From positions 96,001 to 160,000 of the forward strand of contig CBDDDG010000012.1 of the NCBI GenBank assembly GCA_965226555.1: DNA of 64,000 nt. Direction: 5' to 3'. A program made the translations under genes and the position numbers. The stretch is from Salinispira sp. (GTDB lineage: Bacteria; Spirochaetota; Spirochaetia; DSM-27196; Salinispiraceae). The notes below the pieces were generated by a model. It worked only from the letters and a program-made list of their open reading frames with translations, was not told where the DNA came from and did no database searches. Below, piece by piece: positions 16,200 to 44,246 of the stretch. Within the stretch, counting starts at the first letter, position 1; each line of letters begins with the position of its first letter.

Positions 16200-16408
16200 A
16201 GCCTTCAAGATCGCCTACTACAGAACCCCCCGTATGATTCCCGACCTGCTACGGCTGTTCTGTGAGGATACGACTCTTGCCAAGCTGGACTTGGGCAAAA
16301 TTCGTATTGAAACCCCCAGCTACATTGCAGGAAAAAAGAACCTTCACTGCGATCTCGTTGTCAGCGCCCCCTTCCTGTCAGACCCCGACCGAAAAGCCCT
16401 GTTCATTA

Positions 16409-16535
16409 CTGAAAATTTTGCGGAGCAAAATTTTCCAATGAGGATTCTCTCATCTATACTCTTGATTCTCTCACGGTATAGAAAGTTTTGCCTTGGAAAA
16501 TTGTGCAAGCACAATTTCCAGTAGCAAAACTTTCG
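16409..16535. mobile_element. Hairpin mini-element (type A), TA duplication
   Basis: Empty site ctgttcatTAttgaac in copy 2 versus TA-[127 bp]-TA here. Confidence 0.92.
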
Positions 16536-17037
16536 TATTGAACACAAAAGTTACCTGCACAAACATGTTCTCACACAGATCGATGACTATCAGCATGCCC
16601 TCAGAAACAGCAATGTGTACAATGAAAATGATGCTATCTATATATTGTTGCTCTACCATGGAAAAAAGGAATGGAACCTCCCACTCACATTTTACAGTTC
16701 GCATGGAAATGCTGCTTCCGAATCCCTTACCGAAGGCACGGTGGATGTCAGGGTGAAAGTGTCGTACATTGTGCGCGATCTGAGGCGAATGACAAAGAAG
16801 CAGTTGGCATTGCGCTCCGATGAAAAACGATATACATCGACTGCGTTGTGGTATATAATGCGAGATAATGAAATGAACGATGAGGGGCTGAAAGAAATTG
16901 CGCAGCTCCTGAACGGTCTGTCATCACAAGACTTTACTGATCTGGCAGAGAGTGTGCTGGGTTACCTGAAGGACTTGGGACTGTATGAGCAGTTTGAGAA
17001 AATTAACAGGAAACTATATCCTGAAGGAGAAAACAGT

Positions 17038-17337
17038 ATGCGGACATATAATATTACCAACGCCTTCGTCAGGGAAGGCATTGCGAAGGGCATGGAGAAA
17101 GGTATTCTGAAAGGCCGTGTTGAAGGTCTTGAGCAGGGTATCACAAAGGGCAGGGCTGAGGGCATTGAGAAAGGTATTCTGAAAGGACTGCGAACAGGTC
17201 GTGCTGAGGGGCATATTGAGGAGCGGAGAAAAAACGCCCGCAGTATGTTTTCCATAGGACTTTCAGCAGATGACGTTCGGAAGGTTACCGGGCTGAGCGA
17301 TGAGGAAATGCAGACAGTGCGGAACGGATCGCATTAA
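17038..17337 (+). CDS. Predicted intragenic small protein (RpnS-like, 99 aa)
   Basis: In-frame ATG preceded by GAAGGAGA at the start of the E/K/G-repeat tail. Confidence 0.65.
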   Translation: MRTYNITNAFVREGIAKGMEKGILKGRVEGLEQGITKGRAEGIEKGILKGLRTGRAEGHIEERRKNARSMFSIGLSADDVRKVTGLSDEEMQTVRNGSH

Positions 17338-17405
17338 TTGACGTTGCTCCGCGTTGCTCGCCCGGGCATCCGGTTCGCCCCGCGCCGGGATCAGGTCAAA
17401 TAGTA

Positions 17406-17531
17406 GAAACTTTTGCATTGGAAAATTGTGCTTGCACAATTTCCAGTAGCAAAAGTTTCAGATTCGGAATGCTTTCTTTGTGCTTAGCATTCTCCTATTT
17501 TATAGAAAGTTTTGCATTTTGCAAAATTTTG
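17406..17531. mobile_element. Hairpin mini-element (type C), TA-flanked
   Basis: Nested hairpin + spacer + short hairpin; repeated at 18983-19108, longer form at 56933-57104. Confidence 0.85.
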
Positions 17532-17606
17532 TAATATCCCAAAATAATAAAAATAATTACAAAAATTTCTCATATTCACCGTTCATATGTACCCCGTCTA
17601 TATAGT

Positions 17607-17765
17607 ATGAGAAAAGATTATATCGGTATGGTACATGACAAAAGCTGGAAATATGTTTTCGGGAATGCTCAGATATTCCGTGACTTCATATATTCATACT
17701 TCAACAAAGGCCTCGCGCGGAGCATTGTTCCGGGGAGCGTGGAGAGTATCGACTCAGAGCATACC
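17607..17765 (+). pseudogene. N-terminal fragment of a different Rpn-like gene (repeated at 19184-19318)
   Basis: MRKDYIGMVHDKSWKYVFGNAQIFRDFIYSYF resembles the Rpn HD..(F/W)K..F N-terminus; reads in frame into copy 2. Confidence 0.6.
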
Positions 17766-17864
17766 AGCCCACATTCCCGACTCCCCGAAAAAAATCACAA
17801 CATTCTTTCAAAAAACACAGTCAAAAATGACAGTTTACCCGTCACAGATGTAGGAGGAATGTTT

Positions 17865-18914
17865 ATGAAAAAATCATCCCACAGCACAGGCCACATCCAC
17901 GACATAGCCTTCAAGATCGCCTACTACAGAACCCCCCGGCTGATTCCCGACCTGCTGCGGCTGTTCTGTGAGGATACAACGCTTTCCAAGCTGGACATGA
18001 ACAAAATCCGCATTGAAACCCCAAGCTACATTGCAGGAAAAAAGAACCTTCACTGCGCTCTCGTTGTCAGCGCCCCCTTCCTATCAGACCCCGACCGGAA
18101 GGCCCTGTTCATTATTGAACACAAAAGTTACCTGCGCAAACATGTTCTCACACAGATCGATGACTATCAGCATGCCCTCAGAAACAGCAATGTGTACAAT
18201 GAAAATGATGCTATCTATATATTGTTGCTCTACCATGGAAAAAAGGAATGGAACCTCCCACTCACATTTTACAGTTCGCATGGAAATGCTGCTTCCGAAT
18301 CCCTTACCGAAGGCACGGTAGATGTCAGGGTGAAAGTGTCGTACATTGTGCGCGATCTGAGGCGAATGGACAAGAAGCAGTTGGCATGGCGTTTCGATGG
18401 AAAACAATATACATCGACTGCATTGTGGTATATAATGCGAGATAATGAAATGAATGATGAGGGGCTGAAAGAAATTGCGCAGCTCCTGAACGGTCTGTCA
18501 TCACAAGACTTTACTGATCTAGCAGAGAGTGTGCTAGGATATATGAAGGAACTGGGACTGTATGAGCAGTTTGAGAAAATTGACAGGGAACTGTTCCCTG
18601 GAGGAGAAAACAGTATGCGGACATATAATATTACCAACGCCTTCGTCAGGGAAGGCATTGCGAAGGGCATGGAGAAAGGTATTCTGAAAGGCCGTGTTGA
18701 AGGTCTTGAGCAGGGTATCACAAAGGGCAGGGCTGAGGGCATTGAGAAAGGTATTCTGAAAGGACTGCGAACAGGTCGTGCTGAGGGGCATATTGAGGAG
18801 CGGAGAAAAAACGCCCGCAGTATGTTTTCCATAGGACTTTCAGCAGATGACGTTCGGAAGGTTACCGGGCTGAGCGATGAGGAAATGCAGACAGTGCGGA
18901 ACGGATCGCATTAA
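17865..18914 (+). CDS. Rpn/YhgA-like protein copy 2; open frame but Asp->Ala at the presumed catalytic position
   Basis: RBS AGGAGG before ATG 17865; HDIAFK, IIEHKS, LLYHGKKEW; HCALVV (GCT 18057-18059) where copies 1, 4 and 5 have CDLVV. Confidence 0.88.
   Translation: MKKSSHSTGHIHDIAFKIAYYRTPRLIPDLLRLFCEDTTLSKLDMNKIRIETPSYIAGKKNLHCALVVSAPFLSDPDRKALFIIEHKSYLRKHVLTQIDDYQHALRNSNVYNENDAIYILLLYHGKKEWNLPLTFYSSHGNAASESLTEGTVDVRVKVSYIVRDLRRMDKKQLAWRFDGKQYTSTALWYIMRDNEMNDEGLKEIAQLLNGLSSQDFTDLAESVLGYMKELGLYEQFEKIDRELFPGGENSMRTYNITNAFVREGIAKGMEKGILKGRVEGLEQGITKGRAEGIEKGILKGLRTGRAEGHIEERRKNARSMFSIGLSADDVRKVTGLSDEEMQTVRNGSH
18615..18914 (+). CDS. Predicted intragenic small protein (RpnS-like, 99 aa)
   Basis: GGAGGAGA-AAACAGT-ATG in frame. 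Confidence 0.65.
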   Translation: MRTYNITNAFVREGIAKGMEKGILKGRVEGLEQGITKGRAEGIEKGILKGLRTGRAEGHIEERRKNARSMFSIGLSADDVRKVTGLSDEEMQTVRNGSH

Positions 18915-18982
18915 TTGACGTTGCTCCGCGTTGCTCGCCCGGGCATCCGGTTCGCCCCGCGCCGGGATCAGGTCAAATAGTA

Positions 18983-19108
18983 GAAACTTTTGCATTGGAA
19001 AATTGTGCTTGCACAATTTCCAGTAGCAAAAGTTTCAGATTCGGAATGCTTTCTTTGTGCTTAGCATTCTCCTATTTTATAGAAAGTTTTGCATTTTGCA
19101 AAATTTTG
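18983..19108. mobile_element. Hairpin mini-element (type C)
   Basis: Matches 17406-17531 at a 1577-bp offset. Confidence 0.85.
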
Positions 19109-19719
19109 TAATATCTCAAAATAATAAAAATAATTACAAAAATTTCTCATATTCACCATTCATATTTTACCCGTCTATATAGTATGAGAAAAGATTATAT
19201 CGGTATGGTACATGACAAAAGCTGGAAATATGTTTTCGGGAATGCTCAGATATTCCGTGACTTCATATATTCATACTTCAACAAAGGCCTCGCGCGGAGC
19301 ATTGTTCCGGGGAGCGTGCGTCAATACACCCTATAATACAGGGCGAATTCAACCATACGCTCACCCCCATTCCCGACTCCCTGAAAAAAACACAACATTT
19401 TTTCAAATTCTTTCAAAAAACACAGTTAAAAATGACTTTTTACCCGTCACAGATGTAGGAGGAATGTTTATGAAAAAATCATCCCACAGCACAGGCCACA
19501 TCCACGACATAGCCTTCAAGATCGCCTACTACAGAACCCCCCGTATGATTCCCGATCTACTGCGGCTGTTCTGTGAGGATACTGCGCTTGCCAAGCTGGA
19601 CTTGGGCAAAATCCGCATTGAAAACCCCAGCTACATTGCAGGAAAAAAGAACCTTCACTGCGCTCTCGTTGTCAGCGCCCCCTTCCTGTCAGACCCCAAG
19701 CGAAAAGCCCTGTTCATTA

Positions 19720-19846
19720 CTGAAAATTTTGCTCCGCAAAATTTTCCAATGAGGATTCTCTTATCTATACTCTTGATTCTCTCACGGTATAGAAAGTTTT
19801 GCCTTGGAAAATTGTGCAAGCACAATTTCCAGTAGCAAAACTTTTG
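19720..19846. mobile_element. Hairpin mini-element (type A), TA duplication
   Basis: Same site and length as 16409-16535. Confidence 0.92.
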
Positions 19847-20179
19847 TATTGAGCACAAAAGCTACCTGCACAAACATGTTCTCACTCAAATCGATGACTA
19901 TCAGTATGCCCTCAGAAACAGCAATGTGTACAATGAAAATGATGCTATCTATATATTGTTGCTCTACCATGGAAAAAAGGAATGGAACCTCCCACTCACA
20001 TTTTACAGTTCGCATGGAAATGCTGCTTTCGAATCTATGATTGAAGGCACGGTAGATGTCAGGGTGAAAGTGTCGTACATTGTGCGCGATCTTTGTAGAA
20101 TGACAAAGAAACAGTTGGCATGGCGTTCTGATGAAAAACGATATACATCGACTGCATTGTGGTATATAATGCGAGATAA

Positions 20180-20282
20180 TAACAAAGTTTTTCCTAAAGG
20201 AAAAACTTTCTATACCGTGAGAGAATCAAGAGTATAGATGAGAGAATCCTCATTTGAAAATTGTGCAGAGCACAATTTTCAG
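20180..20282. mobile_element. Hairpin mini-element (type B, 103 bp, inverted relative to type A)
   Basis: Empty site gagataa^tgaaatg in copies 1, 2 and 5; spacer is the reverse complement of the type A spacer. Confidence 0.9.
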
Positions 20283-20783
20283 TGAAATGGACACTGAGGG
20301 GCTGAAAGAGATTGCGCAGCTCCTGAACGGTCTGTCTTCACAAGACTTTACTGATCTGGCAGAGAGTGTGTTAGGGTATATGAAAAATTTAGGACTGTAT
20401 GAACAGTTTGAGAAAATTGACAGGGAACTGTTCCCTGGAGGAGAAAACAGTATGCGGACATATAATATTACCAACCCCTTCATCAGGGAAGGCATGGAGA
20501 AAGGTATTCTGAAAGGCAGGGTTGAAGGTCTTGAGCAGGGTATCACAAAGGGCAGGCAGGAAGGACTGCGAACAGGTCGCGCTGAGGGGCATATTGAGGA
20601 GCGGAGAAAAAACGCCCGCAGTATGTTTTCCATAGGACTTTCAGCAGATGACGTTCGGAAGGTTACCGGGCTGAGCGATGAGGAAATGCAGACAGTGCGG
20701 AACGGATCGCATTAATTGACGTTGCTCCGCGTTGCTCGCCCGGGCATCCGGTTCGCCCCGCGCCGGGATCAGGTCAAATAGTA

Positions 20784-20810
20784 GAAAGTTTTGCATTTTG
20801 CAAAACTTTG
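20784..20810. repeat. Minimal 27-bp hairpin element
   Basis: TA-GAAAGTTTTGCATTTTGCAAAACTTTG-TA. Confidence 0.85.
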
Positions 20811-20908
20811 TAGTAATATCTTTCCATAAATTAACAATGTAATTTGACAACAATGAGTAAATTGTAGTATATTATAAGCTTATTCTATTATTCGAGTTAT
20901 GCCTATAT

Positions 20909-22369
20909 ATGTGTCCTGCAAGTACAATGTCTTCTCTGAGCGATTCGGAGAACAAAATACAATTTCCCAATATCCGATTTTATGATCAGGACTTTGTTGA
21001 AGCATATGATCAAACATGGAACTGGGTTGAAGATTGTTATTCAGACGAAATTAATATTTTTGGTGAGTTTCAGAAATTATTCATTGCTCCCGGGGCAAAC
21101 ACAATAAATTCGCTCGATGCCTGCTTTTCAACATTTTTTCTTGTCTACAGCAACACAATATATTCCAGCCTTCCTCAGTTAGATTTTTTTTACAGCCGTC
21201 AGGAGGAAAACGGTGCAATTCGAAGTACCTATTCCCTTGCGAGTACCGAACCGGTATTTTCCGATGACAATCCGGAATCCCTCGGCCTCCCGCTTTTTGC
21301 CTGGACTGAATACAATTTGTACCACAAACTGGGAAACAAACGGCGGATTCGCGAGGTAATGCCAATTCTTGAGGCATATTTTAGCTGGATCGCAAATAAT
21401 TTTAAAGACGAAAACGGCTTATATGCAACACCATTAGCCGCCACTGGCATGATCAATTCCCCCCGGAATGAAGCACGGTATTTTGTCGATTTTAACATGG
21501 TTCAGGCAATAAATGCCTTGTACATGAGCGAACTCGGTGATATTCTTAATGATAAGGAAATTACCTTCAGATACAAACAGCATTATTTTACCCTGAAAAC
21601 CCGAATAAATCAGAAAATGTGGTGTGAAGAAACCGGGTTTTATTTTGATGTAGATAAACATCAGAATAAACTGAATGTAAAAACCCTTGCAGCCTATTGG
21701 AGTCTTATTGCTGAGCTGCCGAATGATGCAAAATTTGAGCGTCTTTTTTCCTATCTGAAAGATCCGAATGTCTTTGGAACACCAAATCCCTTTCCTTCTC
21801 TTGCTGTTAACGAACCGGCTTTCAACAAAGATGGAAATGCCTACTGCGGTTCTGTGTTTCCGCATCTGACATTCATGGTTATAAAGGGTCTGGAAAAATA
21901 TTCCGGCTATGAGTTTGCCCGTTCTGCGAGCATCCGTCATCTCTATTATATTCTCGATGCCCTCCATCCTGAAGGAAATACGCAGGGAAACGTGTACGCT
22001 GCCTATAAGCCGACTGAAGAGGGCCCCGCGACATGGATAGATGATAAGCAGGGAGCGGTTGCCATGTATTTACCCTATGTCGGATTGTCGACAATATCGC
22101 TTATGATCGAAAACATTATTGGTCTGTACATAAGCTTACCGAGAAAAACCGTTGTCTGGATCGTTCCAACGCTTGAAAATATGGGAATTGAAAATCTTTC
22201 CCTGAAGAGAAATCTTATTACCATTCTCAGCAACAAGAGCAACAGAGGGTGGGAAGTACGGTTGGAAAGCGAAAAGTTATATTATTTTACAATTGATATT
22301 CTCAGCAAGAAACGAAAAACCCTGCCCATACCGAGCGGTAAGTGCTCCATACTTCTGGATAAACTATAG
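20909..22369 (+). CDS. Glycoside hydrolase of GH63/MGH1-like (alpha/alpha)6 type
   Basis: GMINSPR, INQKMW.EETGFYFD, PSLA..EP.F...G.AYCGSVFP. Confidence 0.7.
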   Translation: MCPASTMSSLSDSENKIQFPNIRFYDQDFVEAYDQTWNWVEDCYSDEINIFGEFQKLFIAPGANTINSLDACFSTFFLVYSNTIYSSLPQLDFFYSRQEENGAIRSTYSLASTEPVFSDDNPESLGLPLFAWTEYNLYHKLGNKRRIREVMPILEAYFSWIANNFKDENGLYATPLAATGMINSPRNEARYFVDFNMVQAINALYMSELGDILNDKEITFRYKQHYFTLKTRINQKMWCEETGFYFDVDKHQNKLNVKTLAAYWSLIAELPNDAKFERLFSYLKDPNVFGTPNPFPSLAVNEPAFNKDGNAYCGSVFPHLTFMVIKGLEKYSGYEFARSASIRHLYYILDALHPEGNTQGNVYAAYKPTEEGPATWIDDKQGAVAMYLPYVGLSTISLMIENIIGLYISLPRKTVVWIVPTLENMGIENLSLKRNLITILSNKSNRGWEVRLESEKLYYFTIDILSKKRKTLPIPSGKCSILLDKL

Positions 22370-22449
22370 AACCCCCCGGTACGTTTCAAAGTGCATGGGT
22401 TGAATTCACCCTATCTTGACTTTTCCTCTATCAATGTATACAAACAATC

Positions 22450-22722
22450 ATGGACAAACGGGAACTGGAAATTACCGCTGAACTTGCGGATATTGAGTTG
22501 AGCGATTCTGACATTGGACGTTTTACTCAGGCAGTTGAACAGATGATACAGCACTTTGAGGTAATGGCGGGTGTTGATGTTGATGATCATGTATCTGATG
22601 CTCGGCCTGTGGGGCATGCTCTTCGTGAAGACAGGGCGCATAAGTCGGTAATGAACGATGCGATTATTGATCAGTCGCCGGAACATGAAGACCGGTACAT
22701 TATTATTCCCAATGTCCTGTAG
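22450..22722 (+). CDS. gatC: Asp/Glu-tRNA amidotransferase subunit C
   Basis: LREDR...Q.PE....YIIIPNVL; precedes gatA. Confidence 0.9.
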   Translation: MDKRELEITAELADIELSDSDIGRFTQAVEQMIQHFEVMAGVDVDDHVSDARPVGHALREDRAHKSVMNDAIIDQSPEHEDRYIIIPNVL

Positions 22723-22725
22723 GTT

Positions 22726-24252: not shown

Positions 24253-24286
24253 CACGAACAACCGAAAAATTGGAGTAAAACATACA

Positions 24287-27039: not shown

Positions 27040-27133
27040 CAGCTAAGTCCTGACGCAGTGTTACAATTGGCGGGAGAATGTCGTTGTCAGTCTGGACTGA
27101 AGGAACAATACTTAGTTCTGGAGGTGGTGATAT

Positions 27134-27709
27134 ATGAAAACCGCAGATATAGTTTTTAAAGAAAGAAAATCCCGGGCATGGACGCAGGAATATCTATCTA
27201 TAATATCGGGAGTAAGTATTCGGACCATTCAAAGAATTGAAGCAGGTTCCGAACCATCTTTTGAAACGGCATTGGCTCTGGCAGCCGGATTTAACATTGA
27301 TGTCAACAGCTTGTTCAGCGAAGAAAAAACACTTCGAAAACATGTGCGCCTGACTGGTATATTGGCTCTTATATTCATATTTCCTCCATTTTATTTCGCC
27401 TTTTCTGCCATTCTTGCATACCGGTTTGGCATTGATCTGTTTTATCGGGTATTCGCGCTAATGCAGATAAGTGAGATGGGGGCAGTTTTGTTCCATCGGC
27501 TTTCACCGATAGTGTTCATTGGCTGCGGCGTAATCGCCCTTTTTTTTGCTGCCTATACCGGAGTTATGATTGCCAAACCACAAAGAATTAACGAAAGTTA
27601 TACGGGTGTGGTATCAATATATCTCAACAGATCATTGATAATGCTCATCCCCCTTGCTCTGTGTATTATTACAGCGGCTACATTTTTTCTTTATGCCTTG
27701 GCTGAGTGA
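27134..27709 (+). CDS. XRE-type HTH protein with transmembrane segments
   Basis: WTQEYLS..SGVSIRTIQRIEAG, then three hydrophobic stretches. Confidence 0.8.
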   Translation: MKTADIVFKERKSRAWTQEYLSIISGVSIRTIQRIEAGSEPSFETALALAAGFNIDVNSLFSEEKTLRKHVRLTGILALIFIFPPFYFAFSAILAYRFGIDLFYRVFALMQISEMGAVLFHRLSPIVFIGCGVIALFFAAYTGVMIAKPQRINESYTGVVSIYLNRSLIMLIPLALCIITAATFFLYALAE

Positions 27710-30056: not shown

Positions 30057-31634
30057 CTAATACCATGAGGGAATCAGATTACCTGTTACGCCGGAATCCA
30101 CAAACATACCGGTGTCTGTTCCGGTATATTTGCCAGCGCTATTAAGCGTAAGATGCTCCCCCCACTCTTCAAGATCCTGATTGAATGCCCTTGCTTGATT
30201 GAACATAGCGAGCATATCCGTTACCAAGCTGACATTCCAGCCGGAGATATCTCCATTGAATACGCTTGCCAACTGGAACATAGAGGTCATACCCGTTACC
30301 TTACTGACATCCCAGTCCGAGATATCGCCATTGAATTTGGCCGTTGCAGCGAACATACTGACCATATCTACTACCGTGCCAGTATTCCAGAGCGAGATAT
30401 CGCCATTGAATGCAGTTGCAGAACTGAACGTAGCGTTCATATTTGTTACCGCCGCAGTATCCCAGAGCGAGATATCGCCATTGAACATGCTATTATTTTT
30501 AAAAATATCGGACATATCCGTTACCGCAGTGGTAATAATGTAGTTGAAATCGGCAGTATTGCCCCATGTTGATATCCCCGTAGTTACCGCTGTTTTCAGT
30601 TCACCATTACCGCCGTCATCATCACCATCGCCACCAGCAGCAACAGCATCATCAGGACTCACGGTAACATAAAAATGTTCGGCAAAGAGTATGTCATCGG
30701 TTTCTGTTTTAATGCCGTATACCAGATATGTTCCTGCTGTTGTACCTGCGGTAACCCTAATCGTAGTACCGGTAAGCTGATCATAAGTCGGCAGGGTGAT
30801 CCCTGCGGGCGGAGGTACGAAGGTTGGCTCAATGTCTCCTTCTTTAACCGTGTGAGTGCCCGTTATCACATAAACGGCTGGTTTCTCACTGGCAATAATT
30901 TCATTAAGGGCAGCCGAAAGGTTTACATCCGCTGCCATATTCGCGGGAGTCTTTATCGCAGAATCTGTTGGTGTTTTCGTTGCGAGCATAGACCAGTCGC
31001 CATTGCCGATTTCATTGACAGCGCGCACCCGTACTTCGTAATCGGCGTCGTTTGTCAGGCCGTCAATGCTGTGATCGTGCTTGCCCGGTGCCGGAGCAAT
31101 TTCCGTCCATGATCCGTTGCCTGTGCGATACTGCAATTCGTACCCGGTAACGGGGCTGCCTCCGTCATCTTCCGGGGCAGTCCATAGAGCAACAAGCCGC
31201 CCAGTGCCCGCATAAAGGGTTGGGGCAACCGGCGCGTCAGGAACAGTAGCAGGGGGAGTTTCAGCGGCAGATTCCGACCAGTCGCCAGCGCCAATTTCAT
31301 TGACGGCGCGCACCTGTACGTCGTACTCGGCGGCCTTTGTCAGTCCGGTAATGGGGTAGCTTGTGTTTGTGCCGATGCCTTCGCTAATTTCTGTCCATTC
31401 TTCCTCGCCTGTGCGATATTGCAGATCATACGCGGTAATGGGGCTGCCGCCGTTGTTCGGCGCAGTCCATGTGGCAATGAGTTGCTCATTCCCCGCTTCA
31501 AGGGTTGGCGCAGCCATTGTGCCCGGCACAGTTGGCTCCGCCACCGGTTCCGGCATTGGACATCCAGCAATCAATACAATAAAAATTGCGCAGAATAGAA
31601 AAAAGATTGTTCCTTTGTATGACGTGATTCTCAT
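30057..31634 (-). CDS. Surface lipoprotein with two fibronectin type III domains and BspA/DUF285-like repeats
   Basis: Lipobox IAGC; W.AP..GGSP.T.Y.LQYR...VRAVN x2; FNGDIS.W.....T.M..MF repeats. Confidence 0.88.
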   Translation of the reverse strand: MRITSYKGTIFFLFCAIFIVLIAGCPMPEPVAEPTVPGTMAAPTLEAGNEQLIATWTAPNNGGSPITAYDLQYRTGEEEWTEISEGIGTNTSYPITGLTKAAEYDVQVRAVNEIGAGDWSESAAETPPATVPDAPVAPTLYAGTGRLVALWTAPEDDGGSPVTGYELQYRTGNGSWTEIAPAPGKHDHSIDGLTNDADYEVRVRAVNEIGNGDWSMLATKTPTDSAIKTPANMAADVNLSAALNEIIASEKPAVYVITGTHTVKEGDIEPTFVPPPAGITLPTYDQLTGTTIRVTAGTTAGTYLVYGIKTETDDILFAEHFYVTVSPDDAVAAGGDGDDDGGNGELKTAVTTGISTWGNTADFNYIITTAVTDMSDIFKNNSMFNGDISLWDTAAVTNMNATFSSATAFNGDISLWNTGTVVDMVSMFAATAKFNGDISDWDVSKVTGMTSMFQLASVFNGDISGWNVSLVTDMLAMFNQARAFNQDLEEWGEHLTLNSAGKYTGTDTGMFVDSGVTGNLIPSWY

Positions 31635-31813: not shown

Positions 31814-32885
31814 ATGAAAAAATCATCCCACAGCACAGGCCACATCCACGACATAGCCTTCAAGATCGCCTACTACAGAACCCCCCGGATGATTCCCGAC
31901 CTGCTGCGGCTGTTCTGTGAGGATACAACGCTTGCCAATCTGGACATGGAAAAAATCCACATTGAAACCCCCAGCTACATTGCAGGAAAAAAGAACCTTC
32001 ACTGCGATCTCGTTGTCAGCGCCCCCTTCCTGTCAGACTCCGACCGGAAGTCCCTTTTTATTATTGAGCACAAAAGCTACCAGCACAAACATGCTCTCAC
32101 ACAGATTGATAACTATCAGTATGTCATCAGAAACAGCAATGTGTACAATGAAAAGGATGCTATCTATATATTACTGCTTTACCATGGAAAAAAGGAATGG
32201 AACCTCCCACGCGAATTTTACAGTTCGCATGGAAATCCAGCTTCCGAATCCATGACTGAAGGCACGGTAGATGTCAAGGTGAAAGTGTCGTACATTGTGC
32301 GCGATCTTTGTAGAATGAAAAAGGAGCAGTTGGCATGGCGTTTCGATGGAAAACAATATACATCGACTGCATTGTGGTATATAATGCGAGATAATAACAA
32401 AGTTTTTCCTAAAGGAAAAACTTTCTATACCGTGAGAGAATCAAGAATATAGATGAGAGAATCCTCATTTGAAAATTGTGCAGAGCACAATTTTCAGTGA
32501 GATGAATGTTGAGGGGCTGAAAGAGATTGCGCGGCTCCTAAACGGTCTGTCATCACAAGACTTTACTGATCTAGCAGAGAGTGTGTTAGGCTATCTAAAA
32601 GATTTGGGACTGTATGAACAGTTTGAGAAAATTAACAGGGAAGTATATCCTGAAGGAGAAAACAGTATGCGGACATATAACATAACCAACGCCTTCGTCA
32701 GGGAAGGCATGGAGAAAGGTATTCTGAAAGGTCGTGTTGAGGGGCTTGAACAGGGGCAAGCTCAGCTCCAGCGTGAACAGGTACCCCAAATGCTTAAGGA
32801 TGGTCTGTCGATAGACCGTATTCGTAAGTACACTAAGCTCAGCGATGATGAAATTCAAGCATTTCAGAAAAACGGACAGGGATAA
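31814..32885 (+). pseudogene. Rpn/YhgA-like copy 4, frameshifted by a type B mini-element; C-terminal mini-ORF 32667-32885 intact
   Basis: 103-bp insertion 32395-32497; different tail (QVPQMLKDGLSIDRIRKYTKLSDDEI). Confidence 0.9.
32395..32497. mobile_element. Hairpin mini-element (type B)
   Basis: Same site as, and nearly identical to, 20180-20282. Confidence 0.9.
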
Positions 32886-33028: not shown

Positions 33029-33100
33029 TCATAAAGTTTTGCTACTGGAAATTGTGCTTGCACAATTTTCCAAGGAAAAACTCAATGCAAAACTTTCTCG
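33029..33100. repeat. Nested-hairpin mini-element directly downstream of tRNA-Ala
   Basis: aaagttttgc-tactggaaattgtgcttgcacaattttcc-...-gcaaaacttt; largely the reverse complement of 16481-16535. Confidence 0.85.
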
Positions 33101-35158: not shown

Positions 35159-35206
35159 GTGCTGCAGGTGCGCGGGCGGCACAGGGCGGGCGGTGAGCGC
35201 TGCGCC

Positions 35207-36454
35207 TTAGTTGGGTGTTTTCTTCCGGTAGAGTGTGGTTTTCAGATAGTCAGTAGTTGCCTCGAAGACCGGGTCTGTTTCATTCAGGTTCTGCATGAGG
35301 GGAATTATCTTGGTTCGCACGCCCATTCCGCGGGAATCGATATAGCCATAGTCGCGGAGAATGTCCGTTATGAGGGTATTTCGCGGGGAGCGCTGTCCGG
35401 CGATCATTTTGTCAATGGTCATGGCATTTTGCAGCTTTCCCGGGCTGATGACCTCCAATCGATCTGAATAATTTGTTACTTCAATATCGACCGATCTTGT
35501 CCAGTCCCGATGAGCCAGCGCATTAATTACTGTTTCCCGAACGGCTTCCCATGGATAATAAAAAGTCTTATCTCTCCGCATAAATTCATTTATTTCATCG
35601 GCTTCGAGGGTAATAAATGGCGCTATCGCAGACGAAAACTTTTCAATGAGTCCATCGTCAATTAACTGCCTGTGGTTTGTTCCCGCCATTTCCCAGCGGC
35701 CGACCAGCGGGGCGTCAATACGCGTATCGAGCTGAGAGCGGTAGGTTTTATCATCGCCGGAAAAAGACATAACCCGCAGTCCGGCCTGACCGAGATATCG
35801 GCGGGGGGAAATGCCGAAGCAGAGCAATCCGGCAATTGAACACACCGAGTTGCCCAAAGCATCCTGAGCCATGAGCCCAAGCCCCGACAGCCGTTTTATC
35901 CACTCTGAATCGCTTTCGGGAATCTCCGGGTCTCCAATAATTGCCCGCAGATAGTAGGTGAGCCGGGTTTTATCCATGTTCAATACCGAGGTGCCCGGAA
36001 CAGGCAGAATTTCAACATGAAGAATGCCTCCGCTTTCGAAAAGGCGCAATTGCTGCTCACGGCTTGCAATTTCAGATCGATTCGCCATGCGTATATAAAT
36101 ATCTTCGCGGTTATTATGGCGCAGTGCATAGGGTTTTGATATTCCCGCCGCAATTGAAATTACTCCAACGCGTATGCCCGATTCTATGTGTATTTCTTCA
36201 TAAAAGGGAATAATTTGCGGATGCACCTTGTCCCTGAAGACATTTAAGACCCATTCCTGAGTATCGGTGCCGGCGCGTTGGAGTCCGGTACATTGTCCAT
36301 TGTCTTCCACGCCTAAAAATATTCGTCCGCCTTGAACATTTGCAAATGCGGCAATTTCCTTTGCCAACTGCTCCGGGCGAATATCATCTCTCTTGAACTC
36401 CACACCGGAATTTTCGCCATTACTAATAATTTCCAGCAACTCAGATTTTAGCAT
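35207..36454 (-). CDS. AlbA_2/Schlafen domain protein with RecG-C-like (HATPase_c_4) domain
   Basis: GENSGVEFKR, AFAN..GG.IFLGVEDNG, RE...NALAHRD, RGMG. Confidence 0.85.
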   Translation of the reverse strand: MLKSELLEIISNGENSGVEFKRDDIRPEQLAKEIAAFANVQGGRIFLGVEDNGQCTGLQRAGTDTQEWVLNVFRDKVHPQIIPFYEEIHIESGIRVGVISIAAGISKPYALRHNNREDIYIRMANRSEIASREQQLRLFESGGILHVEILPVPGTSVLNMDKTRLTYYLRAIIGDPEIPESDSEWIKRLSGLGLMAQDALGNSVCSIAGLLCFGISPRRYLGQAGLRVMSFSGDDKTYRSQLDTRIDAPLVGRWEMAGTNHRQLIDDGLIEKFSSAIAPFITLEADEINEFMRRDKTFYYPWEAVRETVINALAHRDWTRSVDIEVTNYSDRLEVISPGKLQNAMTIDKMIAGQRSPRNTLITDILRDYGYIDSRGMGVRTKIIPLMQNLNETDPVFEATTDYLKTTLYRKKTPN

Positions 36455-36460
36455 AATTCC

Positions 36461-37321: not shown

Positions 37322-37401
37322 ATCTATAAAATTCCTTCCTTTTTTCCTATTATACTATCAGAAATTTTTACATTGATAAAGGAAAAAATGGGCAGCTGGG
37401 T

Positions 37402-38652
37402 GGGATATTAAGGTTTGAACAGACCCCACTTTGACCTATTATGCGATCATTTCTTCCGAGTGCCAAGCCCTCCATCGCTCAAGCGTCGGCCGTGTGAGCC
37501 GTTGCTCCATTATGATCGGCTTGAGCCGGAGAATATCACTATCCACATTGGTATTCCGTTGCCTCAAAAGATCCAGCGGAGTCCCTTTTCGGTAGGTGTT
37601 GAACCGCCGGTAATTGAAATCTATCTGATACTCCTCGGCTTCCTTAAGAAACTCATTGAGCTTTGGATTCATCACCTGACTGTAGAACTCATCCTCAATG
37701 AGCCGGTGCGAGGACTCGACAGAACTGTTCCATGTGCAATGCCCGGGCGGAATACGCCGATACTCGACACCCGCCTGTATGAGCGCCTGCTCAAACCCCG
37801 ATGTTCGGGTTTTGCTCAGATGTCGAACGGTGAACTCTGCCCCGTTATCGGTCTGAACCGTTATGTCCTTGGCAAGGTCTCCGTCATGATTCCGCAGGTG
37901 CTCCAGCAGGTACTCGGCGAACAAGGTTGTTACCATACTGCTCTTCTCATTGGCAAAGGCGTACCACAGAGCCCCTGTCGCCCGATCCCGGGCAGTTATC
38001 TGGTACTTCGGAACGTCTAAACACTTCTGAGAAAACCGCATAGCGGGAATGTCCGTCAGATACTTGATATCAATCTGAATGCACTCGCCGAACTTCATCC
38101 TGTCGGTTACCTCCCGCAAATCTCTCTTGGGCCGCGCCTTCGGCTTCTTTGTTTTCTGCGCCCCTATCTGCTTTAGCGTCTTGATAATCGTCGGCAGGCT
38201 GTACTTCCCGCCAACTTCCGCCTTCAACTGCTTTTGCACCTGCGTTCCAATGATTTTGTTGTGATTCCGATTCTTGGTCTGGACAAGACTCTCGAGATGA
38301 CACCGGTGCCCGAATTTCATCTTCATCGGATGATTGGTCGTGCCCCGCTTTTTGTCTTCAAGCCCCTCGCCGGATTCAAAGCGCCGAACCCACCGCCGCA
38401 CCGTGTTGCGCGACACCTCGAACTCCCGAGCAGCCGCCTTGATCGAATGCTCCTGGGCATACCGAACCATCCGCAACCGCCAATCATACATCGAAGCCGC
38501 CTGATACTTCCGAGACTTGAGATGATACTGAGAATATGTGATACTACTGTTCACTGTTTCCCTCCTTTTATGTTTTATACAACCCCCCAGTGTATACGAA
38601 TAACCTTCGTTTTACACTGGGGAGGAGGGGTCTGTCCAAAGGTTTATATCCC
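37402..38652 (-). mobile_element. IS481-like insertion sequence (1251 bp) with 26-bp imperfect IRs and 18-bp flanking direct repeats
   Basis: IRs GGGATATTAAGGTTTGAACAGACCCC / GGGATATAAACCTTTGGACAGACCCC; AAAAATGGGCAGCTGGGT at 37384-37401 and 38653-38670. Confidence 0.92.
37439..38554 (-). CDS. DDE transposase (HTH + integrase core, IS481-like)
   Basis: AAREFEVSRNTVRRW, IQIDIK, QTDNGAEF, N..VESSH; RBS AGGAGG before GTG. Confidence 0.92.
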   Translation of the reverse strand: MNSSITYSQYHLKSRKYQAASMYDWRLRMVRYAQEHSIKAAAREFEVSRNTVRRWVRRFESGEGLEDKKRGTTNHPMKMKFGHRCHLESLVQTKNRNHNKIIGTQVQKQLKAEVGGKYSLPTIIKTLKQIGAQKTKKPKARPKRDLREVTDRMKFGECIQIDIKYLTDIPAMRFSQKCLDVPKYQITARDRATGALWYAFANEKSSMVTTLFAEYLLEHLRNHDGDLAKDITVQTDNGAEFTVRHLSKTRTSGFEQALIQAGVEYRRIPPGHCTWNSSVESSHRLIEDEFYSQVMNPKLNEFLKEAEEYQIDFNYRRFNTYRKGTPLDLLRQRNTNVDSDILRLKPIIMEQRLTRPTLERWRAWHSEEMIA

Positions 38653-38709
38653 AAAAATGGGCAGCTGGGTGAGTTGACATAAAATTATTTTTGATTATGC
38701 TAGACCATA

Positions 38710-40014
38710 GTGGATCCTGAAAAACCGCTATTTCCGCGATGCAGTGTTAAATACCCGTGTTTCCAGAGCTTCCCTATAGATAAATCCATGTTTGAAAGTA
38801 TTATTGCCATTGCCCAAAAAATAAATTTTTCTCAGCAGACCAGAATGAACGCGCTCCTCGCAAGTAATGTCCTTCGTAGGGAATTGCTACATTCCGATAT
38901 TATCAAAATGTTTATTGATCCACATTTTGACAAAGACGGACAACGGTTGCGGTTCTTTTTGGAAGCGGTTGGAAAAAAATCTCTCGGACGCACGCGAAAA
39001 AACATTTCATTGCCAAAACATGTTACAAAATCGCGGGTGCCCAATGTGTACGTTCGCAGGGAATATGAGAATATTGATATTCTCATTACATACAGAGCTA
39101 AAAATAACAGGCCCATTGCTATCATTATTGAAAACAAAATTGATGCTCCCGATCAGGACAGACAACTTGAGAGATATATTAGTACAATGCAAGATGAAGG
39201 ATATAACGAAGTAGGGTCGGACATTTTCCCCATCTATTTATCTCTAACTGGTAAGGAACCAGAACAGAAATCTATTGGAAACTACGACATAGATAATATT
39301 ATTATGTGTTCGTACGAAGAGCATATTCGGTCGTGGCTTGATGAATGTACTTTACATGAACAGGATAATTATATGAAGAGTAATGTAACCATGTATAAGG
39401 AAATGGTGGAGGTTTTGATGAGTGATGAGAAAAACAAATGGGAAGCAGTTGAGGCTGTTTTCAATGCGGCTGACATAAAGGAGCCGAAGCAATTAGAATT
39501 ATTGACCGATGCGGTTCGGAGAAAAGCACAGGTAAGGTTCTTGCAGAAGCTTTGCGGGGAGCTTTCAAGAAGAATAAAAAAACTTCCTAGAGTCAGTAAA
39601 TACGCATATACTTCAAAGGCATCAATTGAGAGGCAGGCGAAGGCTTCAGATGAATACGGGTTCAGCTTTCAAATAGCTGCAAATCTTTTATGGTCTGTTA
39701 AATTTGACTGGAGTAATAAAAAATATTTTTTGTTTACTGGTTTACAACCGATTCCAGAAGGAGAAATTGATGAGGAAATAAGAAAAAAAATCATCAAAGC
39801 AGTCATGCCAAAAAAATACTCTCATTATAAGAGGAATGACGATCACTGGTATATTCGGTCAGATACCTATGATTTGGAGATGTCATTCCGTCGCGATGAG
39901 GAGACGAAGAATGCATCTGTAAAAGATTGGGAAGATTGGGCGCATGAATATGCAGATTATTTCTATGATAATTTAGTGGAGTGTTGCGAATTGGCAAAGA
40001 GTGCTTCGAAATGA
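38710..40014 (+). CDS. PD-(D/E)XK nuclease superfamily protein (PDDEXK_4-like); start may be 38788
   Basis: RE..NIDILI...IIIENKIDAPDQDRQLERY; TTGACA-16-TATGCT upstream. Confidence 0.8.
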   Translation: MDPEKPLFPRCSVKYPCFQSFPIDKSMFESIIAIAQKINFSQQTRMNALLASNVLRRELLHSDIIKMFIDPHFDKDGQRLRFFLEAVGKKSLGRTRKNISLPKHVTKSRVPNVYVRREYENIDILITYRAKNNRPIAIIIENKIDAPDQDRQLERYISTMQDEGYNEVGSDIFPIYLSLTGKEPEQKSIGNYDIDNIIMCSYEEHIRSWLDECTLHEQDNYMKSNVTMYKEMVEVLMSDEKNKWEAVEAVFNAADIKEPKQLELLTDAVRRKAQVRFLQKLCGELSRRIKKLPRVSKYAYTSKASIERQAKASDEYGFSFQIAANLLWSVKFDWSNKKYFLFTGLQPIPEGEIDEEIRKKIIKAVMPKKYSHYKRNDDHWYIRSDTYDLEMSFRRDEETKNASVKDWEDWAHEYADYFYDNLVECCELAKSASK

Positions 40015-40118
40015 ACATGAATCTCTGAACCCAACATTCCTGCTTTCGCATATGTGAAAGAAAACGGTGTCGGAATCATCAAAAGCCGCGAATGCGCAAT
40101 TCCTTCAGAAACAGCATA

Positions 40119-40146
40119 CAGAAAATTTTGCCCAAAAAATTTTCTG
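40119..40146. repeat. Short TA-flanked hairpin between convergent genes (same family; may act as terminator)
   Basis: TA-CAGAAAATTTTGCCCAAAAAATTTTCTG-TA. Confidence 0.6.
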
Positions 40147-40184
40147 TATTAAAATATTTTTTCAATCCACCATCAACATTAAAT

Positions 40185-43115
40185 TTAGGCAAAAGCTTTT
40201 TCAATGAATGTCTTCAGTTCTTCGGTATGCTGTTTATGACTGCCTGTTGCGGGGCTGGATGATGCTGCGCGTCCGAGGTAGGTGAGCGTACTCTTCGGGG
40301 GCATAAAACGTTTTTCACGGTATTTGACGAAGAGCCATGCTCCCCTATTTTCTGTTTCTTCCTGAACCCAATAAAATGTTTCAGCCTTCGTGTAGCGTGA
40401 AAGGATGTTTTTCAGTTCATCCGCAGGAAAAGGATATGCCTGTTCAAGACGTACAATTGCAATATCTTTACGGTCGTGCCGCGCAACAATAAGGTCATAA
40501 TAGATTTTTCCGCTGCATATGAGAACCCGCCCGATCTTGTCGGGGGTGAGAGTATCATCAATAACTGTCTGGAAACTACCCTGAGAAAGTTCATTAACAG
40601 AACTCACACATTTTTTATGACGGAGCAGGCTTTTCGGACTCATGATGATAAGCGGTTTTCGGTATTCCTGTTTCATCTGCCTGCGGAGCACATGAAAATA
40701 CTGAGCGGGTGTTGTTGCGTTTACAACCTGAATGTTATCGTCGGCACAGAGGCTCAGGAAGCGTTCATAAAAGGCGCTTGAGTGTTCCGGTCCCTGCCCC
40801 TCGTAGCCGTGAGGAAGGAGCATGGTTAATCCGGATGAACGGAACCATTTCGTTTCTGCGGAAACAATAAATTGATCAATTATTACCTGTGCCCCATTTA
40901 CAAAATCTCCAAATTGACCTTCCCAGATAGTCAGGTTGTCGGGAGTTGCCAGACTATATCCGTAATCGAAGCCGAGCACCGAGAATTCACTCAGGGGGCT
41001 ATCGTACACAGAAAACCATGCCTGCTTCGGCGAAAGAGACCGCAGCGGCACCCATGGTTTGGGTACCGGGCTTTCAACATCCCACCACACAACATGGCGC
41101 TGCGAAAAGGTTCCGCGCCCGCAGTCCTCTCCGCTGAGCCGAATGGCGCTCCCTTCCATGAGCAGGCTCCCGAAGGCCAGGCTTTCGGCAAAGCCCCAAT
41201 CGATAGCATCGTCTGTAAAAAATTGCTTTTCACGGCCCTTGGTAAAGCGGAGAAGTTTTGAATGTACATGAAATTGTTCGGGAATGGTAACAAGTTTCTG
41301 AGCAATGTGAGTAAGCTGTTCCCTGTTTATACGTGTATCAGTGTGATCAAAAACATATTTCCGTGTAAATTTTTTCCAGACAGTACTCTGATATGCGTCG
41401 TCAATTTTCGGTTCATATCCTTTACGGGCTTCACTGAGATGCTTCCTGAGCTCTTCAATATAGGATTTTTTGAATGCTGTCTGTTCTTCAAGAGACCAAA
41501 TCCCATCATCAATAAGACGCTGTTCATACAGTTTGCGGGCACTTTGATGGTTCTTAATGATTTTGTACATCTTCGGATGACTAAAGCTCGGTTCATCGGC
41601 TTCATTATGTCCAAGTCTCCGATAACAGATAATATCGACAATAACATCGTGTCCGAATTTCTGTCGGAATTCAAAAGCCAGATGTATGGCAAGATTGACC
41701 GCTTCAGGATCATCTCCATTAACATGAAAAATTGGCACGGAAATAGACTTGGCAATGTCAGTGGCGAAGAAGGTTGAACGGCTGTCATGGCTGGCAGTGG
41801 TGAATCCAATTTGGTTGTTCACAATGATGTGAATTGTTCCGCCAGTTCGGTATCCCCGTAATTGAGAAAGATTAAGGGTTTCAGCAACAATTCCCTGACC
41901 CGAGAAAGCCGAGTCGCCATGAATGAGTACCGGGATCACTTTCTTCCGGTGACGGTCATGCCGCCGCCGCTGTACGCCTCGTGCTTTTCCTTCAACAACC
42001 GGGTTGACCGCTTCAAGATGGCTCGGATTTGCTACAAGACCGATGTGCAGAACATTCTCAGTATTTTCAGACTGATAATCGGTGGAAAACCCAAGATGAT
42101 ATTTAACATCTCCGCTTCCTCCGTAGGTGTGGGGAGCATAGTTATCGACAAAACGGGCAAAAAGATCTACCGCAGGCCTGTTCATGGAGTTAGCGAAAAC
42201 ATTGAGCCGCCCCCGATGCGCCATACCGAGTACTGTTTCCAAAACACCATTGTCGACCATAAGATTAAATAGATAATGAAGCGCGGGGATAAGAGCTTCT
42301 CCCCCTTCAAGGGAAAAGCGTTTTTGTCCAATGAAATTTGAGTGAATAAAATGTTCAAACTCTTCAGCTTTAATGAGATCTTTTTGAAAGGAAATTTTTT
42401 CTTCCCTTCTCCACTTCTTATGTGATTTCTTTCCTTCAAGATGGTTTATGAGCCAATTACGAACTGCCTTATTCTGAATATGGAGAATTTCGGTGCCAAG
42501 TGTACCGCAATATGTTTCCTGCATTCTCTTCATTATTTCCCGAAGAGGCAGTGTTTCTTCAGGTATGAAGCGCCCGGTAAGAAATACCGTATCCAGATCC
42601 GATTCCGAAAGTCCGAATTCTTCCGGGGTGAGCTTTTCATAGTTTCCCTCAACAGAAAACATCATGTACCAGAGCTCGGGGGTAATGTAGCCATCCAAAG
42701 GATTGAGATTAGCGTAAAGGTATCCAACATCACGGAATGCCCAGATCATCGCGTTTACCCGCGACTGCTTATAGGCATGACTGGTTTTATCAATGTGTGA
42801 TTGGTCGTTTTCTGCTGAATTGGAGAGTCGGCGGGGAGCGGTCTCACGATCATTGAGATCGGCAATTTTCGCTGTCTCAAGCCGATGTGCGGCAACCTTG
42901 GCAGCAGTGCCGACAGGAGGGGCAGTGCCGACCGCCTTAGCGGCAACACCGACAGCACTGTGAGCGCCGTTCAGCGCCGCATCAAGTGTACTGTTGCGAA
43001 TGTTCTGAAAGTACCGATTCCACGAGGAATCGACAGATTCAGGGTTTTTCAGCCATTCCTGATAGAGCTCATCAACAAATTCTGCATCGCTAAAATGGAG
43101 ATAGTTTCCAATCAT
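40185..43115 (-). CDS. sucA: 2-oxoglutarate dehydrogenase E1
   Basis: KRFSLEGGE, GMAHRGRLN, HGDSAFSGQG, RRLGHNEADEP, LLPHGYEGQGPEHSS. Confidence 0.97.
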   Translation of the reverse strand: MIGNYLHFSDAEFVDELYQEWLKNPESVDSSWNRYFQNIRNSTLDAALNGAHSAVGVAAKAVGTAPPVGTAAKVAAHRLETAKIADLNDRETAPRRLSNSAENDQSHIDKTSHAYKQSRVNAMIWAFRDVGYLYANLNPLDGYITPELWYMMFSVEGNYEKLTPEEFGLSESDLDTVFLTGRFIPEETLPLREIMKRMQETYCGTLGTEILHIQNKAVRNWLINHLEGKKSHKKWRREEKISFQKDLIKAEEFEHFIHSNFIGQKRFSLEGGEALIPALHYLFNLMVDNGVLETVLGMAHRGRLNVFANSMNRPAVDLFARFVDNYAPHTYGGSGDVKYHLGFSTDYQSENTENVLHIGLVANPSHLEAVNPVVEGKARGVQRRRHDRHRKKVIPVLIHGDSAFSGQGIVAETLNLSQLRGYRTGGTIHIIVNNQIGFTTASHDSRSTFFATDIAKSISVPIFHVNGDDPEAVNLAIHLAFEFRQKFGHDVIVDIICYRRLGHNEADEPSFSHPKMYKIIKNHQSARKLYEQRLIDDGIWSLEEQTAFKKSYIEELRKHLSEARKGYEPKIDDAYQSTVWKKFTRKYVFDHTDTRINREQLTHIAQKLVTIPEQFHVHSKLLRFTKGREKQFFTDDAIDWGFAESLAFGSLLMEGSAIRLSGEDCGRGTFSQRHVVWWDVESPVPKPWVPLRSLSPKQAWFSVYDSPLSEFSVLGFDYGYSLATPDNLTIWEGQFGDFVNGAQVIIDQFIVSAETKWFRSSGLTMLLPHGYEGQGPEHSSAFYERFLSLCADDNIQVVNATTPAQYFHVLRRQMKQEYRKPLIIMSPKSLLRHKKCVSSVNELSQGSFQTVIDDTLTPDKIGRVLICSGKIYYDLIVARHDRKDIAIVRLEQAYPFPADELKNILSRYTKAETFYWVQEETENRGAWLFVKYREKRFMPPKSTLTYLGRAASSSPATGSHKQHTEELKTFIEKAFA

Positions 43116-43131
43116 AAGAGGTCTTTCTGGC

Positions 43132-44246
43132 TCATTGCCCTGCGGGTGCCGCAGATCCGTTTAATTCACGTCCCATGAGTTCACGCACCCGTTCCGGTGA
43201 AAGTTCCGTAGCGGCAACCACATCGGACTCCTCTATTCCAAGCCGGATCATATTACGAGCCGTTTCTCGAATACCTTCCTGCCGACCCTTTGTGATACCC
43301 TGCTCAAGACCTTCAACCCTGCCTTTCAGAATACCTTTCTCCATTCCCTGCTCAAGACCCTCAATCCGGCCCTTCGCAATGCCTTCCCTCACGAAGGCGT
43401 TGGTTATGTTATATGTCCGCATACTGTTTTCTCCTTCAGGATATAATTTCCTGTTAATTTTCTCAAACTGCTCATACAGTCCCAGTTCCTTCATATATCC
43501 TAGCACACTCTCTGCTAGATCAGTAAAGTCTTGTGAAGACAGACCGTTCAGGAGCTGCGCAATCTCTTTCAGCCCCTCATCGTTCATTTCATTATCTCGC
43601 ATTATATACCACAATGCAGTCGATGTATATCGTTTTCCATCGAAACGCCATGCCAACTGCTCCTTTTTCATTCTCCCAAGATCACACAAAAGGTACGACA
43701 CTCTCGCCCTGACATCCACCGTGCCTTCGGTAAGGGATTCGGAAGCAGCATTTCCATGCGAACTGTAAAATGAGCGCGGGAGGTTCCATTCCTTTTTTCC
43801 ATGGTAGAGCAGCAGTATATAGATAGCATCATTTTCATTGTACACATTGCTGTTTCTGAGGGCATACTGATAGTTATCGATTTGAGTGAGAGCATGTTTG
43901 TGCAGGTAGCTTTTATGTTCAATAATGAACAGGGCCTTCCGGTCGGGTTCTGACAGGAAGGGGGCGCTGACAACGAGATCGCAGAGAAGGTTTTTTTTCC
44001 TGCAATGTAGCTGGGGGTTTCAATGCGGATTTTGCCCAAGTCCAGCTTTGCAAGTGTTGTAGCCGTACAGAACAGGCGCAGCAGGTCGAGAATCAGCCGG
44101 GGGGTTCTGTAGTAGGCGATCTTGAAGGCTATGTCGTGGATGTGGCCTGTGCTGTGGGATGATTCTGACTCAGTGTTCCCTGATGTTTTTCGGGACTTTT
44201 TCCGGGACTGTATTCTTTGGTGCCGGGGATGGGGAGATTTTTTCAT
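43132..44246 (-). pseudogene. Rpn/YhgA-like copy 5; -1 frameshift in an A8 run; C-terminal mini-ORF 43422-43132 intact
   Basis: GGAAAAAAAACC versus GGAAAAAAGAACC in other copies (T8 at 43991-43998). Confidence 0.88.

Follow-up and report, generated by a model that had tools for sequence, protein, structure and literature searches.

Damaged Rpn/YhgA genes with open internal RpnS-type frames in a Salinispira-like spirochete belong to a large gene family with shared lesions

Introduction

The closest described relatives of the genes treated here are rpnA to rpnE and rpnP2 of Escherichia coli (Zhong et al. 2023, PMC10400941; Kingston et al. 2017, PMC5350276; these two papers and PMC6387759 are cited throughout for the accessible parts of their text). 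Tandem rpn arrays, a genome with 26 copies, and stand-alone rpnS genes (rpnSs/ypaA) in E. coli have been reported, all five E. coli RpnS proteins have been detected (PMC10400941), and inhibition by RpnS is described as cognate-specific (PMC10400941; PMC10400984). We analyzed five damaged genes of this type, copies 1 to 5, in a 64,000-nt stretch of the genome of a Salinispira-like spirochete (the window, C12:96001-160000 of the assembly; positions below are those of the window). They resemble the E. coli genes in having a PF04754 nuclease core with equivalents of D11, D63, and E82 of RpnA, an internal Shine-Dalgarno (SD) sequence and ATG before a C-terminal tail, variable four-residue repeats, a promoter-like site inside the gene, and tandem copies.

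E. coli rpnD is a pseudogene (PMC10400941, legend to supplementary Fig. S2) from which the small internal protein is still made; a broken rpn gene that still makes RpnS is thus already known, and this was the core observation of an earlier note on the window. Whereas rpnD and rpnSs/ypaA are single loci, there are dozens here, with breaks common among copies, and the family comprises about 145 tail-bearing copies against 5 in K-12 and 26 in the largest genome count in the accessible text of PMC10400941. A comparable case is the DUF1703 (AAA-ATPase plus PDDEXK_9) expansion in Cardinium cCpun (PMC6387759), likewise a lineage-specific growth of a PD-(D/E)XK family in a host-associated bacterium with recombination between paralogs; it concerns another Pfam family, however, and its 25 paralogs, at 39% identity compared with 92% at the DNA level within subfamily A here, are not homogenized and have no internal antitoxin described in the accessible text. 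Among the papers listed by our literature searches, none reported an Rpn family this large or conversion among rpn copies (Dataset S1 of PMC10400941 may hold larger counts), and the main text of PMC12478362 does not mention Rpn. It is the size and the shuffling of the family that are notable. Zhong et al. (PMC10400941) and Koonin (PMC10400984) list as open what drives the variation of the four-residue repeats, the multiplication of rpn genes, and copy-specific phage targets.

Results and Discussion

Rpn sequences make up 180,583 bp, or 6.1%, of the assembly. A hidden Markov model search of 37,033 six-frame open reading frames (ORFs) yielded 128 ORFs with an Rpn core of at least 150 aa, in clusters of 55, 48, 11, 7, 5, 1, and 1. 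The five genes belong to subfamily A, for which BLASTN located 86 loci, 62 spanning core and tail, 9 truncated at the 5' end, and 15 tail-less, with copies 92% identical at the DNA level. Among the 62 full-span copies, 26 are intact with all catalytic residues (D, D, E, K); another 3 have an open frame but a changed Asp, and the other 33 are broken. Across subfamilies A to E there are 144 open tails, 141 of them distinct, and 69 of these copies have an intact core. Sixty other genomes of the order hold 0 to 8 PF04754 matches each; many of them are fragmented, and the four single-contig genomes have 4, 0, 3, and 0. The window is an unlucky sample of the family, as no intact subfamily-A copy lies inside it. 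On balance, we think it somewhat probable that the five are damaged copies among the roughly 145 of a family of likely anti-phage Rpn toxin genes, about half of them intact, in which short patches are likely swapped, spreading old knock-out alleles, and that their open tails are likely a by-product of toxin-antitoxin selection.

All the lesions that the earlier note listed for the five copies are present, including the GAT-to-GCT change at 18057 in the open frame of copy 2 (Table 1). They are not all different: the 129-bp insert is found in copies 1 and 3, the 103-bp insert in copies 3 and 4, and the Asp-to-Ala change in copies 2 and 3. The proposal that the toxins were disarmed repeatedly by different lesions therefore fails, as the alleles are few and are common to many loci. 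The Asp-to-Ala change is a single codon change present at 9 of the 74 loci that cover the codon. The 1-bp deletion of copy 5 leaves a homopolymer (an A8 run), and no public contig listed bridges the deletion with copy 5's letters. As for copy 2, its frame is open as the note had said; 17607-17770 is a stub of another Rpn subfamily, and the most likely start, to judge from the one common to the subfamily, is 17865 (MKKSS, with its own GGAGGA) rather than 17607. Such subfamily E 5' stubs (about 110 to 150 nt; here 17607-17770 and 19184-19320) precede dozens of subfamily A and B copies, and they may be a source of promoter or start.

The lesion alleles occur in 18 combinations, and neither the inserts nor the Asp-to-Ala change are linked to single-nucleotide polymorphisms (SNPs) within 30 bp (mean r2 of 0.01 to 0.03). 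Among 152 shared SNPs in the 62 copies, mean r2 is 0.21 at 1 to 10 bp and about 0.04 beyond 30 bp; in a permutation test, linkage was significant at 3 to 10 bp (p = 0.002) and not at 31 to 60 bp. Four-gamete violations occur in about 74% of distant SNP pairs in subfamily A, and linkage decays equally in subfamily B. Because linkage fades within about 30 bp and the lesion alleles are unlinked to nearby SNPs, it is likely that short-patch gene conversion among copies spreads the lesions. Recombination specific to rpn could not be separated from a more general process, as 17 copies of an insertion sequence (IS), 98.5% identical, are also mosaic among themselves, over longer tracts than rpn. Loss of mismatch repair was rejected as a cause; MutS, MutL, and RecA each have one open match.

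If the mosaics and lesions were assembly or polishing artifacts of a repeat-rich metagenome assembly, one might expect signs of trouble such as the contamination estimate of 6.67%, the homopolymer at the copy 5 frameshift, and the finding that no public contig spans the tandem copies. The public contigs carry rpn segments at depths of several hundred, versus 14 to 19 for single-copy flanks, in pieces of 40 to 90 bases, as a real shuffled family would give, with the qualification that public runs X1 to X3 may be the source sample and so not independent. Moreover, linkage decays at distances far below read length, and similar proteins and inserts are present in other assemblies. We consider an artifact very improbable.

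The inserts of copies 1, 3, and 4 all belong to one hairpin repeat, a gene-less, modular element with 484 merged matches genome-wide and folding z scores of -6 to -10. In subfamily A it occupies five sites, at 14, 6, 18, 6, and 17 loci, and each site has its own variant; in subfamilies A and D it is located just before the internal SD. The rpn sites show no clear target duplication, a search for a Y1 transposase in the genome found none (the assembly is 93.5% complete), and the 25-nt core pattern of the repeat matched in one stretch of the GTDB collection. The idea that the repeat is targeted to rpn or moved by it was rejected for want of enrichment, with 104/484 matches inside rpn loci versus 23% expected and 99/484 within 300 bp versus 17%. 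We take it to be akin to the REP/PATE-type small palindromic repeats, its hairpins being gene-less, 100 to 130 bp long, and present in hundreds of copies. Further positions in the window are 20781-20811, 33030-33082, and 56934-57105.

By sequence, the five genes are Rpn/YhgA genes. Copy 2 and an intact sibling match PF04754 (Transposase_31) at 36.1 and 37.1 bits (cut-off, 21), and the TIGR01784 score of 34.7 bits is below that model's cut-off of 52.1, so the Rpn here appears to be a divergent member. The position changed in copy 2 was proposed to be catalytic, and the alignment with RpnA bears this out: the changed Asp aligns with D63, together with the D11 and E82 equivalents (BLASTP, E = 1e-4), and in an alignment of 22 sequences D13 and D65 are nearly invariant and E85 is invariant. 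RpnA-D63A has negligible nuclease activity (PMC5350276). The acidic set equivalent to D11/D63/E82 is present in 26 of the 62 subfamily-A full-span copies, the D63 equivalent being lost in copies 2 and 3. In contrast to RpnA, with Q84 and R94, subfamilies A and D have Lys and Gln at these columns (EHK instead of E-x-Q), while B and C have EHQ; EHK is also found in the unrelated database matches P0062, P0063, and P0065. An AlphaFold model (predicted local distance difference test score, 77) has a PD-(D/E)XK-like order of helix-strand-strand-strand-helix-strand, and the best Foldseek rows were McrBC chains (E = 0.014) and Cap4, none of them at E <= 0.001.

The internal SD and ATG sites and the open C-terminal frames of the five copies stand where the earlier note had placed them; the ATGs at 17038, 18615, 20452, 32667, and 43422 are all preceded by G(A/G)AGGAGAAAACAGT. 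The string from SD to ATG, AGGAGAAAACAGTATG, is exact in 60 of the 62 subfamily-A copies, with one change in the remaining two, and an SD and ATG are found at the matching position in all seven sequence clusters, although the sequences differ. The promoter-like site at 18408-18436, the best of 12 sigma-70-like sites in 17300-19300, lies 180 bp 5' of the internal ATG and is kept in 54/62 subfamily-A copies; it agrees with the consensus at 10/12 positions in A, its homologous counterpart in D at 11/12, and no site of 8/12 or better was found in subfamily B. Within the tails, the length of the four-residue repeats varies by steps of four, and terminal helix-turn-helix modules are common to subfamilies A to D. 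The AlphaFold model predicts one long C-terminal helix (256-322) and two short ones (327-334 and 338-346). The match to the RpnAS structure 7th0 is weak (E = 0.91); that structure comprises 49 aa, whereas the tails here are longer (mean of 279 nt in subfamily A). Given the conserved SD and ATG, the promoter-like site, and the four-residue repeats, the tails look like real RpnS genes-within-genes, and the layout of predicted internal start and promoter-like site fits the arrangement of E. coli rpn (PMC10400941). Open tails in all five copies are unremarkable: of 36 full-span copies that are not intact, only 2 have a broken tail, and at that rate five open tails out of five are expected about 75% of the time. 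Protein P0057, from another assembly, has an IS transposase fragment (HTH_21 plus rve) that continues in frame into an Rpn repeat/helix-turn-helix tail.

We then tallied lesions on either side of the internal ATG over subfamilies A to D, counting core lesions automatically and the 7 tail lesions by hand, with the tail making up 27 to 28% of the target. The tally excludes every subfamily E locus (of 70 listed, 64 have no tail) and the tail-less loci of the other subfamilies, 15 in A (of which two lie at contig ends), 1 in B, 4 in C, and 3 in D. Among the changes themselves, it excludes 5' truncation breakpoints, codon substitutions, small in-frame indels, and three changes at the extreme end of a tail. 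Omission of the tail-less loci (13 in A away from contig ends) favors the idea of an antitoxin reservoir discussed below, and omission of the 5' breakpoints disfavors it. The expected bias toward the core was found only in part. Private lesions, 30 in cores and 7 in tails, are about proportional to length (7/37, p = 0.15 versus the 28% target), which is close to what the earlier note itself named as refuting its proposal. Shared lesions fall short in tails, with 13 in cores and 0 in tails (p ≈ 0.015), and this suggests a purging of tail-breaking alleles. The tail is broken in 1/71 open-core and 5/60 damaged-core copies (p = 0.09), which is the order expected of a toxin-antitoxin pair. In the core, intact copies have a ratio of nonsynonymous to synonymous polymorphism (pN/pS) of 0.25 and damaged copies one of 0.27, and the singleton nonsynonymous:synonymous counts of damaged (38:23) and intact (17:16) cores do not differ (p = 0.38).

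By homology to E. coli, each intact copy would make the nuclease RpnL and, from the internal promoter and start, its own RpnS, which would block only the matching RpnL. With 26 intact siblings, a dead nuclease allele would cost little, and it could for that reason drift, with gene conversion carrying it to other loci. Tail-breaking alleles would arise about as often per base, but one converted into a live copy would deprive that copy of its antidote and would be purged before it could spread; conversion would then keep the tails of dead copies healthy-looking, and any RpnS that a dead copy made would mostly find no toxin to match it.

The earlier note had instead suggested that the dead copies persist for the sake of their RpnS, as a guard against intact relatives, such as 45465-46661, or incoming Rpn toxins. 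Tails are indeed open in 42 non-intact subfamily-A loci, no shared lesion falls in any tail (0/13), 29 of the 42 damaged tails equal the tail of some intact copy in length, the helix-turn-helix modules common to A to D make cross-binding conceivable, and stand-alone rpnS copies exist in E. coli (PMC10400941). However, no intact copy lacks a tail of its own, be it one of the 26 siblings or 45465-46661, and none of 75 damaged-copy tails is identical to that of an intact copy; repeat length and C-module together are shared with an intact copy in only 4/42 (subfamily A). The median distance to the nearest intact tail is greater for damaged tails, at 16 edits, than among the intact tails themselves, at 12 (p = 0.008, a comparison in which tandem twins favor the intact set), and the window's five tails are 13 to 38 edits from the nearest intact one. 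One extra repeat abolishes RpnC rescue (PMC10400941), and according to Koonin (PMC10400984) inhibition in trans would be prevented by the variation of the repeats. The tail is wholly lost in 13 subfamily-A loci, and in 26/42 a hairpin insert separates the promoter-like site from the SD, so expression of RpnS from these damaged loci is not assured. Protection of 45465-46661 by the five tails was rejected on sequence grounds, as that gene belongs to another subfamily and has a 138-aa tail. With private lesions roughly proportional to length as well, the reservoir reading of the five genes is poorly supported, and we consider it quite unlikely.

Several points weigh against our preference for conversion and purging. 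All lesions pooled, tails are still short of damage (7/50, p ≈ 0.02). The deficit among shared lesions, on which purging leans, is mostly hairpin based: 9 of the 13 are hairpin insertions, without which the count is 0/4 (p = 0.27), and the hairpin's choice of target is not uniform, because tails are less AT rich and two of the sites abut the SD. One subfamily-B copy, C14+84895, is the only open-core copy of the 71 with a frameshifted tail. The intact subfamily-A copies are assumed to be active as nucleases; they have Lys and Gln at the Q84 and R94 positions, and RpnA-Q84K is inactive (PMC5350276), so their activity is an inference. The copy-level haplotypes come from one assembly. Finally, variation at 12 conserved positions is confined to the catalytic Asp, which is replaced in two ways (6 Ala and 1 Gly of 61); drift alone predicts this poorly.

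This last pattern is what one would look for if the load of about 70 live nucleases were costly, so that core null alleles were favored and swept through the family by conversion. Three kinds of null allele (hairpin inserts, a 160-bp deletion in subfamily B, and Asp-to-Ala) have reached 8 to 29% of copies while missense change is constrained (pN/pS of 0.25). Still, 69 copies are intact, and in a small host-associated population equal frequencies could result from drift or from conversion biased toward insertions. The Gly codon, moreover, may have arisen from the Ala codon, in which case the two changes would be one event. Selection for disarming thus seems rather unlikely to us.

It has also to be asked whether the family is a selected repertoire in which damaged copies donate core and tail patches for new toxin-antitoxin specificities. 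The distinctness of 141 of 144 tails would fit, as would the conserved residues and low pN/pS retained by damaged copies, and the proteins of other assemblies are new mosaics, 84 to 91% identical to their best match here, one with an identical SD-adjacent insert. Against this, the mosaic IS copies indicate that conversion is genome-wide and nothing special to rpn, there is no layout of expression site and silent cassettes, and intact copies would serve equally well as donors; a donor role for the damaged copies is, in our estimation, improbable. A broader version is speculative and in our opinion unlikely, though not far-fetched: the rpn genes could form a recombining repertoire in which about 70 toxin-antitoxin pairs are live, almost every one having a specificity tail of its own, and are rewritten continually by short-patch conversion from live and dead copies and possibly stirred by the Rpn nucleases. 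If true, it would be the defense-system counterpart of spirochete antigenic variation.

Under the favored explanation, damaged members of a converting family, the five genes carry a warning: gene conversion can leave dead paralogs with open antitoxin frames even where no reservoir is under selection. Its 144 tails (141 different ones) and 69 intact partners also make this genome a ready-made panel for mapping RpnL-RpnS specificity.

Genome and neighborhood

The assembly has 2,983,349 bp (2.98 Mb) in 26 contigs; we call the organism Salinispira-like because the nearest database proteins with a named source carry the label Salinispira sp. Features of the rpn region of the window are listed in Table 1.

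TABLE 1 Positions of rpn copies, internal frames, and repeats in the window
Feature	Position	Strand	Remarks
3' end and terminal repeat of multicopy IS	15986..16199	+	Last 215 bp of IS; truncates copy 1
Rpn subfamily A copy 1	16200..17337	+	5'-truncated by IS; Asp codon kept
129-bp hairpin repeat insert in copy 1, with in-frame stop	16407..16535	-	18113-equivalent site; identical insert at 14 loci
Putative internal RpnS-type ORF, copy 1	17038..17337	+	99 aa, identical to that of copy 2
Intergenic hairpin repeat	17404..17532	-	Between copies 1 and 2
5' stub of an Rpn gene (subfamily E), fused 5' of copy 2	17607..17770	+	
Rpn copy 2	17865..18914	+	Frame open; catalytic Asp codon is GCT at 18057
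Promoter-like site TATACA-17-TATAAT inside copy 2	18408..18436	+	Candidate internal rpnS promoter
Putative internal RpnS-type ORF, copy 2	18615..18914	+	99 aa; SD AGGAG at 18602
Intergenic hairpin repeat	18981..19109	-	Belongs to tandem unit
Rpn copy 3	19470..20715	+	GCT; hairpin inserts 19718-19846 (129 bp) and 20180-20282 (103 bp)
Internal ORF, copy 3	20452..20715	+	87 aa
Rpn copy 4	31814..32885	+	Asp kept; 103-bp hairpin insert 32395-32497, identical insert at 18 loci
Internal ORF, copy 4	32667..32885	+	72 aa
Rpn copy 5	43132..44246	-	Asp kept; private 1-bp deletion near 43992
Internal ORF, copy 5	43132..43422	-	96 aa
Intact Rpn, subfamily C (~30% identical to A)	45465..46661	+	Own SD AAGGAGGT, ATG 46245, 138-aa tail

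The ORF of the IS end that truncates copy 1 matches a full copy at 37439-38554, with HTH_28 and rve_3 matches, and the terminal repeat is matched 41 times in the genome. From this pair of domains we assume the element to be IS481-like. Directly 5' of the Rpn triplet, at 8068-16186 and with a GC content of 52 to 56%, is a Wadjet cluster (jetABCD-type: DUF3375, DUF4194, SMC-like ATPase, and JetD) with a Fic gene, whose ORF has its listed start inside the IS end. That this Fic/Wadjet island cut copy 1 was considered and rejected, as the IS end sits between them.

The start of dnaN is at 7646 (region 6540-8068), with no dnaA ORF directly upstream, and the first minimum of the cumulative GC skew is near 7000. 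An Rfam search of the window gave tRNA-Ala as its only match. The ankyrin-repeat gene at 44484-45341 and the fn3/DUF285 gene at 30057-31634 each belong to a large family, with 88 and 24 to 26 BLASTN matches, respectively. Possible defense genes are a Schlafen/AlbA_2 plus HATPase_c_4 gene at 35207-36454 on the minus strand and a PDDEXK_4 gene at 38710-40014 on the plus strand.

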